A stretch of 46,256 nucleotides of DNA, taken from a virus (lineage: Duplodnaviria > Heunggongvirae > Uroviricota > Caudoviricetes). Below are positions 4,083 to 40,096 of this stretch, in pieces. The stretch's first letter is position 1. Each line of letters starts with the position of its first letter. Under the pieces are notes generated by a model. That model made no database searches and was not told the DNA's origin. It saw only the letters and a list, made by a program, of their open reading frames with translations. The stretch lies in the IMG/VR virus record IMGVR_UViG_2579779052_000002. One strand, written 5' to 3'. The position numbers and the translations under genes were made by a program.

Positions 4083-7000
4083 TCAGCTGATACTGATGCC
4101 TGCGGTGGCTTTCTTCATCACCACAACCAGCAAATCGCTGATACTTGCTGTGGGATACCAGTTATTCACCAGCCATGCTGACACCGAAAACTCCAGTGTC
4201 ATGTGACCGTGACCGGCAGGCATATCAATAACACCACTGTAAATCAGCGTATTATCCAGCGCGGTACGGTTATAAATTTCAGCACCGTTTTTCCGCACTA
4301 TCAGACGGCATGAGGAGTAAATATCAGTATGCTCTTTCTCATGTTTAGCGCCGCTGAATGCCACCGCCGGAATAACAATCTGCCGGTCAAACGGCTGATC
4401 GTCATAAACCCTGACGGTAATGGTCCCTGATGGCCACCGCTCCGGTGCACGGGAGTCCCGGGGGAAAGCTTTGCCCACTGTTTTAACGAGATCGCCTTCA
4501 ATCTGGTTCGCGGACAATTTTCCCAGAACCCGACAGTTCTCGTTAATCGTGACGTTGTTGAGCGTCCCGGAGTTCGCATTCACGTTACCGCTGATATCGG
4601 CATTTTTCGCCGTCAGCCGCCCGTCCGGTGTCAGGGAAAATGCCGGAGGATTACCGCCGCTGGTAATGGTGGGAGCCGTCAGATATTTCAGGAACACTTC
4701 ATTCATAAATATCTGATCGCCCTGACCAACAAACATCGGCTTTGTGTTGCCATTCGCAGGATTAATCATCGCAATCCTGTCTGCCGCCAGCAGCACCTGA
4801 CTCTGCATTCCTGCTGGCGTATTCTCAATACCGGCACCGATACCCGCAATATAAAGGCGTCCGTCCTGCATCTGCTGCAGTTTCACGGCCCACATGCTGT
4901 TCAGGTTATTATTTGTATCAACCTGAACTTTCTGTATCTGCTGGATTGCCGCACTCTGATTTTCCAGTTTTTTATTGACGGTCTGCGTGATTTCATTGCT
5001 GACATTCGTAATGGACGTCCTGATTTCAGCCAGGTCCGGCGCAAGCTGACCGTTATCAATCTGCGTCCACAGCTCCTGGGCCAGATGTGTTTTCCCGATT
5101 TCTCCTTTGAAAAAATCCAGGTAACCTTCCGCATCATCGCTCGCCCGACCGACAGCCTCCACGAATGCCGATTTGCCAACAGTATTCACACTGCGGATAT
5201 AAAAATAATAATCATGGCCCGGTTTGATATTGATACTGGCAGCTATCCAGTACAGCGCCGAGCCAAGATAGCGGGCTGCGGTTTCAATCTGCCTGATATC
5301 CGCAATCCGCTTTTCCGAGAACCAGAACTCAAACTGTACCGTCGGGTCATAAACGGCAAGATGCGGCGTGGCGGTTATCTGAAAATAGCCCGGCGTCAGC
5401 TCAATCCGCGACGGTGCTGCCGGTGCGGCAATCCGGAAGGTGGTGGTGGCAGGTTCACCCTGCTGGCCATAGCTGTTTATCGCCCGCACCGTCAGGGTGT
5501 ATTCCCCGAGCGGCAGGCCGCTGAAACGGTTCTCCGTGTCTGCGGTGATGGCGGTGGTCACCAGTCTGGCATCCGTTCCCTTACCACTGGTCAGGCGCAG
5601 ACTGAAGCGCACACCCTTCACCACCCGCGGCGTGTCCCATTTCGCCTGCGCCAGATACTGGCCGTCAGCTGCGCTCACCTCCACCGTCAGGTGCTGCACT
5701 GCCGGTGGGATGACGCTGTTCAGGGAACCTGACTGCGGCTCAAAGCGGGCACCGTTATCCACGATGGCTTCTTTTTCCGGTACGTGCTGCACCGCCGTGA
5801 TGGCAAAGGTGCCGTCCGTGTTTTCCCGGACGGAGACACAGCGGAACAGGCGACGGCGCAGTGACGGCAGGGAGAGTCCCCACACCCCGTATGTCTCCAC
5901 ACCATCAGGCAGGGTACTGACCTGTATCCGGTCCGGCGCGGGGTGTTCGGTGATGTCCACACTCACTGGCTTACCGCTGCCGTTAATCAGGTTCACCGTG
6001 GCGGCACCGGTCTCCGGAAGTGTCACTTCACGGTCCAGCGTCAGGGTGCGGGTGGCAGCATCAATGGACAGGACACGTCCGCCGGTCAGGGTCCCGGCAT
6101 AGTCGTTATCACAGATTTCAATGATGTCACCGGGTGTGTGCCGCAGCCCCTGAGACCCGAGCGTGAAATCCACCGTCTGCGTTTCCAGCAGTTCGGTCTT
6201 TATCACCCACAGTCCGGCACGGTGGGCCTGACCGCGGCTGGTACAGCCGAACGCGTCCATCTTCAGCAGGTTGCGTCCGTAGCGCAGTATGGCTTCCGGG
6301 TCTTCCACCAGTTCCGTGGAGGTCTGCCAGCCGTTCTGCGGGTCGGTGTAATTCACCTCCACCGCCGTGTGCCGGTCCTTCAGGGCACTGAAGCTGTAGC
6401 GGAATCCCACGCCGTTATCATCCACCACCACATCGCTGTTGGTGTACGGCCACACCACATCCGACGGGCGGTCCTGAACGAACGTCAGCGTCTGACCGTT
6501 CCATACCGGCATACAGCGCATCGCAGAGCAGAAATCACTGAGAACGTCCCACGCCTTACGCTGTTGTGCCAGGTACGCATTAAAGGTCATCCGCGGCTCG
6601 GTCCCCCCGAAACCATCCGGGACCGTCTGATCGCAGTACTGCCCGATGGCATACAGCGCCCACTTGTCCACATCCGCCGCCCCCAGACGTTTTCCCATGC
6701 CGTAGCGCGGGTGAGTCAGCATGTCCCACAGGCACCAGGCCGGGTTGTTGCTGTATGCCGGTTTCAGACTGCCGTCCCAGATACCACTGTACGTGCGTTT
6801 TTCCGGGTCATAGTTTGACGGCACCTGGATGATACGACCGCGGATATGGTAGTTCACCGTCATCTGCTGGCCGCCGAACTGCTCCGCATCCACCTGCAGC
6901 CCCACAATGGCCGTGTTCGGGTAGCACTGTTTCACATCGATGATTTCGGTGTATGACGACCACAGCGTCTTATTCTGCAGCTGGTCCGTGGTGCTGTCCG

Positions 7001-37554: not shown

Positions 37555-38005
37555 CGCGCTTCGCTTGTCTGCTGCTTCGCCGGGGCATAAAAAATTTATG
37601 CCCCGACTCTCCAGCTCCTGTATCAATCAGATAATTTCACGACGCTTTTCTGCTTATTGTCATCATCGGCGGTCAGACTCTTACGCAATCCCACCGCGTT
37701 GACTGCATGTTCTCGCCGCCTCAGTGCGATTTTGACGGCCTTATCTGCCACCCATCAAATCAAAAGCCCTCACGTCTTTTTCACGCTCAGCGTGAGAAAT
37801 ACAGCCATTCTGTTGTGTCGCTGCGACATCGTTCAGGGGATGCTATTTACCCCCTGAAACGCGGGCTGTTCCCCCGTCACCTGCGCGCAGAAAAAACGCG
37901 TTTTTTTGTGCACGTACGGATCCTTGACGGATCCAGCCACCACGCGGGCCGGAAGTACAAAAAGTCGTTCAAAAAAATTGTGCAAACTTGTGCACTATCG
38001 TGCAA

Positions 38006-38031
38006 ACAAAAAAAGCGCCTTATCGGCGCTT
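38006..38031 (-). terminator. intrinsic terminator after the 38040-38309 gene
   Basis: Minus strand AAGCGCC-GATAA-GGCGCTT followed by TTTTTTTGTTTG. Confidence 0.6.
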
Positions 38032-38039
38032 CAAAAGTA

Positions 38040-38309
38040 TCAATTGTTGCTGTTTATTAATCGCCAACCACGAACATATGCTTCATAGGCATCTCTGTGC
38101 CTTACAGTTCCAGCCTGGCTAAACGGAATGTTAGCTAAAACTAAATCATTCTGAGCCATAGCGCGTCCTTCAAGCGCATCTTTTATGCCTAGCTCAAAAG
38201 CACAGGCAGCGCATTTGTGCCGACCTTCTTGTCCTTGATATTCAGGGAGAGACAGAAATGTTGGATTATAACGATGAGGGTTCTTGCAAATACCTGTTTT
38301 AGCCCGCAC
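38040..38309 (-). CDS. hypothetical protein (89 aa), possible Cys-containing small regulator
   Basis: GTG start with GAGG RBS; followed by a strong terminator; no family recognised. Confidence 0.45.
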   Translation of the reverse strand: MRAKTGICKNPHRYNPTFLSLPEYQGQEGRHKCAACAFELGIKDALEGRAMAQNDLVLANIPFSQAGTVRHRDAYEAYVRGWRLINSNN

Positions 38310-38673
38310 TTTATTTACCTCATAGGAAAAATATGCGTGCCTTTACAGAGGTGCGTGTAAGCAATAAAATATACGACGCACATTTTGATTTACTTCGGAA
38401 GGCACGCATATCAGGTTAAGTGAGTCCGACCGAGTTTTACGCCCCAATAGTTGCTGCTATTGGGGCGTTTTGCATGGACAATGCCGCGCAATTATCTTGT
38501 CGCTCACAATGCGAACGATCTTACAAAAAGGCACATTACTGTCAAGATAATTGATCGTTTTAATCGATAGATAATAGACAATCTATTTGTTTAACAGATC
38601 GATTATTGAAGTAAGTGTGCCAAATGGAATGATACTGTCTCTATAAACGTGAGCATTTTTCGCGCAGATGCTT

Positions 38674-38985
38674 TTACTCAGGAAATAACGCCCGGATATT
38701 CCCAGCCATCTGGCTGGTTATCTTAGCCACTGGTGCAGACTGTGCTTCAAACTTTTTTGAGCTGATTTGTGTCACAGGTAACATCTCATCATCAGCCCAT
38801 GCGGCCAGTCGGTAAGCCTCTGCCGGATTCGTCTTCAGAAGTGCCAGCCCGGCCAGAAAAGCCACGCGTTGGCCGCTTTTGCGGGCTTCTGGTGTAAGGC
38901 TGTCCAGCCAGGCGCATGCTTCTCCTTCGTTCTTGACGGCGGCGGGCTTCAGATAGAAACTTATCCGTCTGGTTGGTGTCGTCAT
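38674..38985 (-). CDS. parR: ParR/StbB-like centromere-binding protein
   Basis: Start chosen at ATG 38985 (MTTPTRRISFYLKPAA...KSGQRVAFLAGLALL), resembling plasmid R1 ParR N-terminal RHH region as recalled; directly downstream of parM. Confidence 0.6.
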   Translation of the reverse strand: MTTPTRRISFYLKPAAVKNEGEACAWLDSLTPEARKSGQRVAFLAGLALLKTNPAEAYRLAAWADDEMLPVTQISSKKFEAQSAPVAKITSQMAGNIRALFPE

Positions 38986-38989
38986 TGGT

Positions 38990-39949
38990 TTACTCCTTGT
39001 CCATTGCGTACAGCCCATTAACCAGAGCAAACTGTGGCACCCCGTCCGCGATGAAAGTCGCATTAACTCCGCAGGCTTCGCGGATAGCGGGTGCCACAAT
39101 CTCCGCCCCGCCACCGACAACCATCACCCGCCCGTAACCCGAAAAAACCGCCAGCGCGCGGATCACGCGTTGTTTCAGTGTTTCTTCCTTTTCACGAATA
39201 ACCGCCATCAGGCTGGCGTAATGCGCGTCATTGTGGATGTGCTGGCGCAGCCAGGCTTCATTATGGCGATGTTCGATAATGGTATTGGCGATGTGGTGAC
39301 TGGTGCGCATACCGTTAGTGGCCATCACCGACAGTACGGCATCGGCCATAAGAGAAACGCCTACGTGTGGATCGCAAAACACCTGGCTGATACCTGCCAG
39401 TTGCCCCTGAACCTTTGCCACATCCAGCGTGGTTCCGCCCAAATCCACAATCAGCAGGGATTCAAACGGACTCATGTCAGCCAGTGCTTTAAAGCCAGCC
39501 GGAATGGATTCAGGCATAACCCGTACGTTACGGATAGTGAATGCTTCGCCGTTCTGGTACTCCACCGGGCGCATGACGTTCGCTTTTTTGCGGTTGATGT
39601 TGGCCATGTCCGGCTGTGCGTTTGTGTCGAAATATTCGCTCAGTGGCAGGGTAACAACCACATCCACTTCCTGTGGCGTGATGTCTGATTTGACCAGCGC
39701 GTGATGAATGGCAATGACATTCACATCGCTGTACTGGTATTGCGTGTCGGTCGTCTGGACAAAGCGATCGCTGACCGGATCAAAACCATAGCGCACGCCA
39801 TCAAGCATGTAGTTAGCAGGCTGCGAGCCACCGAACGGCGCAGACCATTCCGACTTGAAGCTGTTCGGGCTGATGGCGTTGCGGCGTTCGCCGTTCTCAG
39901 TCCATGCCAGCTTGATGTTGGTGGAGCCGTCGTCGATGTAAATTTTCAT
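38990..39949 (-). CDS. parM: ParM/StbA-like actin-fold partition ATPase
   Basis: 319 aa; motifs IDDGSTNIK, MPESIPAG, LIVDLGGTTLDV, VMVVGGGAE match actin-like ParM (R1 StbA) as recalled; AAGGAAAA RBS. Confidence 0.8.
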   Translation of the reverse strand: MKIYIDDGSTNIKLAWTENGERRNAISPNSFKSEWSAPFGGSQPANYMLDGVRYGFDPVSDRFVQTTDTQYQYSDVNVIAIHHALVKSDITPQEVDVVVTLPLSEYFDTNAQPDMANINRKKANVMRPVEYQNGEAFTIRNVRVMPESIPAGFKALADMSPFESLLIVDLGGTTLDVAKVQGQLAGISQVFCDPHVGVSLMADAVLSVMATNGMRTSHHIANTIIEHRHNEAWLRQHIHNDAHYASLMAVIREKEETLKQRVIRALAVFSGYGRVMVVGGGAEIVAPAIREACGVNATFIADGVPQFALVNGLYAMDKE

Positions 39950-39977: not shown

Positions 39978-40096
39978 TCGTTTACGGGATTCTGAAATCC
40001 CGTTTTTGCCTGTTTTGTGCGCGCTTCATATATCGCTGCGCGTTTTTTGCTCATTTACGGGATTCGTGAGTCCCGTTTCTGTCTGTTTTTTGTTTC
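39978..40096. repeat. two ~45-bp direct repeats (73 bp apart), each with an ACGGGA-loop-TCCCGT hairpin followed by a T-rich tract
   Basis: TTTACGGGATTCTGAAATCCCGTTTTTGCCTGTTTTGT and TTTACGGGATTCGTGAGTCCCGTTTCTGTCTGTTTTTTGT; one copy in the A-parM spacer, one in the last codons of A. Confidence 0.8.

Follow-up and report, generated by a model that had tools for sequence, protein, structure and literature searches.

A predicted antisense RNA faces a long folded leader in the control region of an accessory gene cassette of P88-like prophages

We analysed the IMG/VR virus record IMGVR_UViG_2579779052_000002 (Duplodnaviria; Heunggongvirae; Uroviricota; Caudoviricetes), a stretch of 46,256 nucleotides that we call the window, and focused on its interval 38310–38673, which lies between a minus-strand gene for a protein of 89 amino acids (89-aa) and the partition genes parR and parM. 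Judging from sequence comparison, this interval is probably the control region of a self-contained accessory cassette, in which a small RNA (sRNA) read from the plus strand faces the long folded leader of the messenger RNA (mRNA) of the 89-aa gene, hereafter the cargo gene. An initial annotation, made from the letters of this DNA alone, had proposed three things here, and they fared differently: an sRNA with a terminator gained support, whereas a small plus-strand gene and a centromere- or origin-like site for parMR did not.

Homologues of the cargo gene were gathered from Escherichia coli prophages of a divergent type (L004 and L005), a Providencia genome, IMG/VR contigs and a P22-like Salmonella phage. 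The ~200–300 bp upstream of the gene fall into four sequence groups that can barely be aligned with each other and that follow one common plan; the 34 distinct relatives that have it include P2-like, lambdoid and P22-like phages. Read in the orientation of the mRNA, the plan opens with a sense promoter and a small hairpin at the 5' end. A hairpin rich in GC (HP2) and an A-rich stretch come next, then a long hairpin (HP3) that ends ~20 nt ahead of the start codon, and lastly a tract rich in U and a Shine-Dalgarno (SD) sequence. The gene and the same leader are found without parMR beside the lysis genes in Providencia lambdoid phages, and again without parMR between cI and N in the P22-like Salmonella phage BIS08P22; in the more distant homologues from other phyla the leader is absent. 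In the record of BIS08P22 (L127), an annotated "hypothetical protein" at 2420–2656 overlaps the conserved leader and the antisense RNA region, and it is probably a spurious gene call.

Two promoters that face each other were absent from the initial annotation, namely the sense promoter of the cargo mRNA (38545–38518) and the antisense promoter (38342–38370), and both are kept in the 34 distinct relatives as matches to the consensus, not as measured activities. All groups have a comparable sense promoter 200–236 nt ahead of the start codon, its hexamers being retained as TTGACA and TAGGAT in L004 and L005, and the leader of the cargo mRNA predicted in the window is ~200 nt long. A perfect 11-nt inverted repeat at 38489–38499 and 38543–38553 (CAATTATCTTG / CAAGATAATTG) flanks the sense promoter of the window; we rejected it as a conserved element because L004 and L005 do not have it, and it is either lineage-specific or a chance occurrence. 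A purine-rich motif (AUAAGGGAA / AUAGGGAA / AUAGGAAAA; for example in the relatives L102, L085 and L095) is conserved immediately 5' of HP2 on the mRNA, ~130–140 nt upstream of the start codon in the leaders of all groups, and its complement, UUCCCUAU, forms the tail of the predicted sRNA.

That a cis-antisense RNA exists is likely, in our judgement, from the constraints found on the strand opposite to the mRNA. This strand carries TTTAC[A/T], a spacer of exactly 17 bp and TAnnnT in 34/34 distinct relatives, and the last of these is realised by eight different −10 hexamers (TAAAAT, TACGAT, TAGACT, TACAAT, TAGAAT, TAATCT, TAAACT and TAGTCT). CTTTAC is invariant and the bases flanking it are variable. 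The complement of the −35 element, TGTAAAG, is invariant on the mRNA, yet its pairing partner in HP3 differs between groups or is absent, and the antisense −10 falls in the variable apical part of HP3; for these two reasons the constraints at −35 and −10 look derived from a promoter rather than from RNA structure. The predicted sRNA folds with z = −3.8. The distance from the −35 element to 12 nt past the HP2 stem is 111–122 nt in the relatives and 141 nt in the window; relative to the L004/L005 type, the window has a 27-nt insertion at 38371–38397 in the body of its predicted sRNA, which is therefore ~97 nt long, compared with ~70–80 nt in the relatives.

The hairpin HP2, at which this RNA is predicted to end, has arms at 38439–38450 and 38457–38468 (12 nt, 100% complementary) followed by a short T-run (GTTTTG, 4 T), in accordance with the plus-strand hairpin and T-run of the initial annotation. 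The T-run after the hairpin is present on the plus strand only; a simple terminator scan with a minimum of 5 T in 8 passed over HP2 because this run is too short. Among 22 distinct sequences, 94% of the cells in the HP2 alignment are paired and 10 of the 12 pairs have changed on both sides, and the covariation score is 0.665, compared with 0.209 in shuffles (0/500 reach 0.665) and at most 0.118 in slid controls. Pairs of the G-U type number 27 in the sRNA orientation versus 8 in the mRNA orientation. A covariance model made from only the G4/P22-like group found the element in the other groups at the correct place and on the correct strand, and the same model found nothing in unrelated loci. 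In the window, the best match of this model (R1) was the plus-strand HP2 (18.3 bits on the plus strand and 13.3 bits on the minus strand). The comparative evidence for the sRNA with a terminator of the initial annotation is thus a plus-strand promoter and a hairpin that are conserved in position in four groups, the latter with covariation.

Scans with Rfam of the window, of the region (E up to 10) and of the element in 13 divergent loci gave no match at the gathering level, and our literature searches found no description of this antisense RNA. Three Rfam families that came up below their thresholds were rejected as resembling the hairpin only: sar (RF00262, 22 bits against 43), ctRNA_pGA1 (RF00236, 22.1 against 45) and Spot_42 (RF00021, 19.4 against 80). 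One match at the gathering level, sRNA-Xcc1 (RF02221, 59.9 bits), was seen at 2804–2893 on the minus strand of the IMG/VR phage contig L100, and it is unrelated to the leader.

The second hairpin, HP3, belongs to the mRNA side. It encloses the antisense promoter, and UUUUU and then the SD sequence come after it on the mRNA; its fold in the window is −58 kcal/mol with z = −5.9. A long stem is present at this position in every group, made by five different sequence solutions, and G-U pairs number 57 on the mRNA strand versus 28 on the opposite strand, the sense orientation being the more stable in 16/19 representatives. Each hairpin thus appears fitted to its own strand, HP2 to the sRNA and HP3 to the mRNA, which is what one would expect if both strands make functional RNA. 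The evidence for HP3 comes from comparison between groups, as RNAalifold on the G4 leaders alone met too little variation within the group to show covariation. Around HP3, three elements co-vary in the L004 type, the lambdoid groups and the G4/P22-like group: a copy of the SD sequence at the start of the 5' arm, its complement (anti-SD) at the end of the 3' arm, and the real SD after the U-rich loop. The triplets are GAGGUG/CACCUC/GAGGUA, CAGGGU/GCCCUG/CAGGGU and GUGC/GCAC/GUGC, and the anti-SD in the 3' arm of the relatives is ACCUC in the L004 type, CCCUG in the lambdoid types and GCACCUU in the P22-like type. When the target of the sRNA was masked, the predicted accessibility of the SD fell from 0.69 to 0.02 in L085, from 0.57 to 0.19 in L100 and from 0.42 to 0.15 in L095.

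As the simplest reading of these features, the following three-element switch may be proposed. The cargo mRNA would start at the minus-strand sigma-70 promoter, and its leader would fold into the 5' hairpin region, HP2 and HP3. The plus-strand promoter within HP3 would drive an RNA of ~97 nt ending at the hairpin and U-run at 38439–38472, and this RNA could pair without a mismatch with the upstream half of the leader, where HP2 and the 5' arm of HP3 lie, and not with the ribosome-binding site (RBS). The antisense RNA would bind the leader as it is being made, with the complementary loops of HP2 as a possible first contact, and would block the 5' arm of HP3; the 3' arm set free by this pairing, which in the relatives carries the anti-SD, would then close the RBS and turn the protein off, while a formed HP3 would leave the SD open. 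The anti-SD mechanism as such is a tentative part of the proposal, and on the folding models we consider it somewhat doubtful. The masking results are inconsistent between groups, so the sign and the mode of the regulation are likewise tentative.

Table 1. Positions in the window of the cassette features and of neighbouring elements
Feature	Position	Strand	Details
Predicted cis-antisense sRNA, ~97 nt	38376..38472	+	5' end inferred (+/-2 nt); 3' end placed in the U-run
Predicted antisense RNA promoter	38342..38370	+	TTTACA-17 bp-TAAAAT; 10/12 consensus matches
HP2, predicted sRNA terminator hairpin	38439..38468	+	12-bp stem, 6-nt loop, then UUUG; inverted repeat I4
HP3, long leader hairpin	38331..38411	-	outer arms 38331-38343 / 38399-38411, 13 nt, perfect (inverted repeat I2)
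Predicted sense promoter of cargo mRNA	38518..38545	-	TTGACA-16 bp-TAAGAT; 10/12 consensus matches
SD sequence (GAGGT) of 89-aa gene	38316..38320	-	GAGGTAAAT kept in window and L004/L005; 6 nt before start codon
89-aa cargo gene, GTG start	38040..38309	-	list of open reading frames; PHROG 3941, E=9e-49
Intrinsic terminator of 89-aa gene	38012..38032	-	8-bp GC-rich stem, then TTTTTGTTT on minus strand
AT-rich upstream patch	38546..38606	.	~-35 to -95 relative to sense start site; immediately upstream of sense -35
28-codon open reading frame (MRAFTEVRVSNKIYDAHFDLLRKARISG), judged non-coding	38333..38419	+	by-product of inverted repeat
parR (Plasmid_stab_B)	38674..38985	-	PF10784, E=1e-23; neighbour outside cassette
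Two 42-nt direct repeats, better parC candidate	39978..40092	.	repeat D1 and inverted repeat I1, just upstream of parM

Several observations weigh against an antisense RNA that acts on a folded leader. Both promoters and the antisense transcript are predictions. The strand bias of HP2 is moderate, the sRNA strand being more stable in only 15/24 sequences, and its U-tail has four U in the window and is poor in several groups (UUCCCUAU; CCCCCAU in the relative L091), so that termination of the sRNA at HP2 is not assured. The window itself is an exception in having no sense-strand bias for HP3; its SD is hardly affected by masking (0.53 to 0.48) and its anti-SD is weak, and the leaders of the G4 and L004 types are predicted to fold the SD hairpin with or without the sRNA. 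HP3 and the U-run after it could act as an attenuator, which would reverse the sign of the regulation, and the 89-aa protein has no domain, fold or defence-model match.

One alternative is a leader that works alone, as a protein-binding, temperature-responsive or other cis-acting 5' untranslated region, with no functional antisense transcript and with plus-strand signals that are incidental. In its favour, HP3 shows a clear bias towards the mRNA strand, HP2 can fold from either strand and its mRNA version is the more stable one in 9/24 sequences, the plus-strand tail after HP2 is poor in U in most groups, and most groups have the purine-rich AUAGGGAA ahead of HP2 on the mRNA. A leader alone, however, gives no structural reason why TAnnnT should be kept exactly 17 bp from an invariant TTTAC[A/T] in the variable apex of HP3, or why TGTAAAG should be invariant while its pairing partner changes, and the internal G-U pairs of HP2 favour the plus strand; we regard this explanation as unlikely. 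If an antisense RNA is accepted, the pair might be more specifically a type I toxin-antitoxin or abortive-infection system in the manner of hok/sok, symE/symR or ralR/ralA, where the 89-aa protein would arrest growth and the antisense RNA would be its unstable antidote. This special case of antisense control fits the architecture, in which an antisense promoter lies in a long folded leader with an occluded SD, as well as the sites of the gene at exclusion or defence spots (the P2 hotspot, a rex-like position and beside lysis genes) and the fusion of its domain elsewhere to HNH, NOV_C, DndB and WYL. It is quite improbable all the same, since the protein is soluble and has 89 residues and is not a short hydrophobic peptide (a classic toxin has <60), since PADLOC gave no match and the sRNA does not overlap the RBS, and since the toxicity of the protein is conjectural. 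About as small a chance is left, in our view, to an attenuator of the opposite sign, in which HP3 and UUUUU (38326–38330, mRNA) would form a leader terminator that also stops read-through from parMR, and the antisense RNA would prevent HP3 and turn the gene on. In agreement with such an attenuator, most groups have a U-rich tract (UUUUUCC, AUUUUAUU and UUAUUUUU) after the 3' arm of HP3, and our scan gave no clear terminator between parR and the cassette. Against it, HP3 with its long stem and large interior loop does not look like a typical terminator, the tract of the L085 type is not U-rich, and the same tract forms the loop of the anti-SD/SD hairpin.

The remaining two alternatives were raised by the initial annotation itself. 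The 28-codon open reading frame with an RBS does exist (AGGA at 38324–38327, 5 nt before the ATG), and together with the plus-strand hairpin it is divergent from the minus-strand cargo gene (38040–38309), as had been described. That it encodes a small protein is extremely unlikely despite this well-spaced AGGA. The ATG lies inside one arm of the perfect 13-nt inverted repeat 38331–38343 / 38399–38411, which was absent from the initial annotation, and a mirror frame on the minus strand (38320–38409) also begins with MRAF, because both frames start in arms of one inverted repeat; moreover the only conserved plus-strand promoter lies 3' of the ATG, an unrelated 31-aa peptide (MRCSSLHGHTQK...) stands at this position in the L004-type relatives, which are the closest divergent ones, and most other groups have no open reading frame there. 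We conclude from these comparisons that the frame is non-coding, an accident of the inverted repeat. The other alternative is that the AT-rich patch between the sense promoter and parR is a parC or origin-like site for the adjacent parMR. The patch has features that invite this idea, as it lies ~70–130 bp from parR, is the most conserved non-coding stretch nearby, and contains palindromes with TAGA/TCTA, of a kind that ribbon-helix-helix proteins can bind. The idea is nevertheless very improbable, because the patch tracks the cargo gene and not ParR: P88 (ParR 83% identical) and vB_EcoM-705R2 (54%) keep the N-terminal domain of ParR, and their DNA after the parR stop is unrelated. The patch has two palindromes and two or three ATCGAT/GATC motifs and no iteron array, the stretch 38300–38700 contains neither an exact DnaA box nor a 13-mer match and shows the clustering of GATC alone, and all of the 180 E. 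coli copies of the parMR-bearing prophage region are chromosomal (180/180, with 0 on plasmids). A conserved pair of palindromic repeats exists at the canonical place upstream of parM.

This repeat pair consists of 42-nt direct repeats at 39978–40019 and 40051–40092, which are 81% identical and each of which contains the palindrome ACGGGAYT-N4-AATCCCGT (2 matches versus 0.2 expected). The pair extends across the stop codon of gpA and the region upstream of parM (start at 39949), and it is 97% conserved in P88, 705R2, L004 and L005. On these grounds it is a better candidate than the AT-rich patch for parC or for the parM promoter.

As for the patch, the composition described initially for 38540–38610 is confirmed, with 75% A+T against 46% in the window, and with GATC at 38553 and 38597 and ATCGAT at 38563 and 38598; a further GATC lies just outside at 38517. 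Three GATC in 84 bp compare with 0.22 expected at the density of the window (Poisson P ~0.0015). The palindromes are ATCTGTTAAACAaAT (38585–38599), a near-palindrome that is perfect in relatives, and ATAGAT-N8-ATCTAT (38568–38587). The patch is the best-conserved part of the cassette, with 87–90% identity to the L004/L005 type compared with 40–80% for the coding region, and it was found in 39 IMG/VR contigs, which are essentially those with the P2-type cargo gene, so that patch and 89-aa cargo correspond one to one. It does not occur in P88, 705R2 or the lambdoid and P22-like versions; a search of plasmids and other phages gave no match beyond the same prophage type, and neither the window nor the whole genome of phage 520873 has a second copy or a similar palindrome. 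We tried the patch as an operator of the repressor, Cox or Arc-like proteins of the prophage, and rejected this because no similar site is present elsewhere and the repeats of the immunity region differ; as a site for integration host factor, for DnaA or for an origin it was rejected because there are no exact sites. The patch appears to be a protein-binding or upstream regulatory site specific to the cassette and not the centromere of parMR, and the 89-aa protein, an H-NS-type silencer or a methylation-sensitive factor are candidate binders.

The patch is possibly sensitive to Dam methylation. In the control regions of the family GATC is 4.1-fold enriched (54 observed versus 13.1 expected), the highest value of the 16 palindromic tetramers, and Dam sensitivity is therefore worth testing. 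One GATC is always found 6–7 nt upstream of the sense −35 throughout the family, and the sense −10 of the window shares bases with a GATC (TAAGATC, 38517–38523). A long shot that we mention in this connection is that the cassette might be an undescribed methylation-sensing switch, in which GATC-rich promoters and the antisense RNA would silence a zinc-type DNA-binding protein in the fully methylated prophage and would release it only from under-methylated DNA, that is, replicating or incoming DNA; the protein would then act as a toxin or as an effector of exclusion or defence, and would bind the AT-rich patch for its own control.

The only library match of the 89-aa protein is PHROG 3941, annotated as of unknown function, and Pfam, NCBIfam and PADLOC gave zero matches. 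A word-indexed homology search returned near-identical proteins only, and a full HMMER scan was needed to reach the wider family, which comprises 173 clusters at 50% identity. The residues that vary little or not at all in this family are C8, H12, R30, H31, C33, C36, Q65, R70 and H71, which look like a zinc site (CHCC-type, Cys/His) and two RH(K) motifs. The protein is predicted to have helices, and it is soluble, with the Cys/His motif of the zinc-binding type. Its AlphaFold (AF2) model is confident (predicted local distance difference test, pLDDT, of 90), and structural comparison of the model found no relative among solved folds. In longer proteins the cargo domain is fused to NOV_C, HNH, DndB or WYL domains, and these fusions suggest that it may bind nucleic acids.

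The whole window is a P88-like prophage of the P2 family. The region is 98–99% identical to Escherichia phages 520873 and 503458 (Xuanwuvirus, P88-like, Peduoviridae), and it is carried by 173/5426 complete E. coli genomes (~3%), among them O157:H7 and O111 strains. The gene order is terminase, portal, a cos-like region, the 89-aa gene, the interval 38310–38673, parR, parM and a gpA-like replication gene, the last four genes all being on the minus strand. An R1-type partition system (parMR, 38674–39949) thus resides in an integrated P2-like prophage, with ParM (StbA_N and ParM_N) and ParR (Plasmid_stab_B) as true members of the R1 family. P88 and vB_EcoM-705R2 have parMR as well, and the homology with them stops exactly at the parR stop codon, past which each compared phage has a different cargo; because of this boundary the interval belongs to the cargo and not to parMR, and it stands within a variable cargo spot with parR on one side and cos on the other. 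The cos-adjacent interval from gpA to gpQ is the P2 hotspot for accessory and defence genes; the locus has been catalogued there as "StbA + Plasmid_stab_B + hypothetical", and partition genes are present in about one quarter of P2-like phages (PMC9122126).

In this neighbourhood we also noted short direct repeats at 37974–38007 (AAAATTGTGC / AAACTTGTGC and ATTGTGCAAAC / ATCGTGCAAAC), which adjoin a stretch common to the ends of the records of P88-like phages and may be terminase- or cos-associated sites. In the divergent prophage type, an extra 95-aa gene (PHROG 33929) lies between the 89-aa homologue and cos (4263–4550 in both L004 and L005), and the 89-aa homologue itself is unannotated in the RefSeq records of this type.

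The predicted design can be compared with several known systems. In hok/sok-type loci such as symE/symR and ralR/ralA, which are borne by plasmids and prophages, a cis-antisense RNA has its promoter within a long folded mRNA leader, and alternative pairings around the SD govern translation. The cassette resembles these loci in its predicted antisense promoter within a folded leader and, if the proposed switch is right, in such pairings, and it differs from them in its product, an 89-aa soluble protein of the zinc type instead of a short membrane peptide, and in the absence of sequence or Rfam similarity. With sar/ant of P22 (RF00262) it shares, as predicted here, a small antisense RNA from a promoter in the leader of an accessory gene of a temperate phage, with a GC hairpin at its end, and a P22-like phage carries this cassette; on the other hand only the hairpin resembles the sar model (22 bits versus the gathering threshold of 43, E=0.12), sar covers the RBS of ant whereas the sRNA here (38376–38472) does not overlap the RBS (SD at 38316–38320), and the cassette is located between cI and N or in the P2 hotspot and not in immI. 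RNA-OUT/RNA-IN of IS10 with its Dam-sensitive pIN likewise has facing promoters, an RNA antisense to the 5' end of an mRNA and a GATC overlapping the sense −10, but the cassette has no transposase, its antisense RNA is directed to the upstream leader rather than to the start codon, and its Dam dependence is conjectural. The likeness to parMRC of plasmid R1 lies in ParM and ParR themselves. In R1, parC precedes parM and is made up of ten direct repeats of 11 bp, whereas the AT-rich patch follows parR, contains palindromes and is not inherited together with ParR among related phages.

By analogy, the design would work like the classical cis-antisense control of accessory genes of plasmids and phages. 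The antisense RNA and its leader belong to no described RNA family and are candidates for a new family tied to an uncharacterised family of phage proteins. The cos-proximal hotspot of P2-like phages has been mined for defence genes by protein annotation alone, and the present case suggests that a hypothetical gene in it brings its own conserved RNA-based control unit, which would accompany the gene from one phage type to another (P2-like, lambdoid and P22-like). The comparison also corrects the inviting assumption that this AT-rich and GATC-rich DNA belongs to parMR, and it yields a candidate RNA family and a testable regulatory design for a widespread phage protein family.

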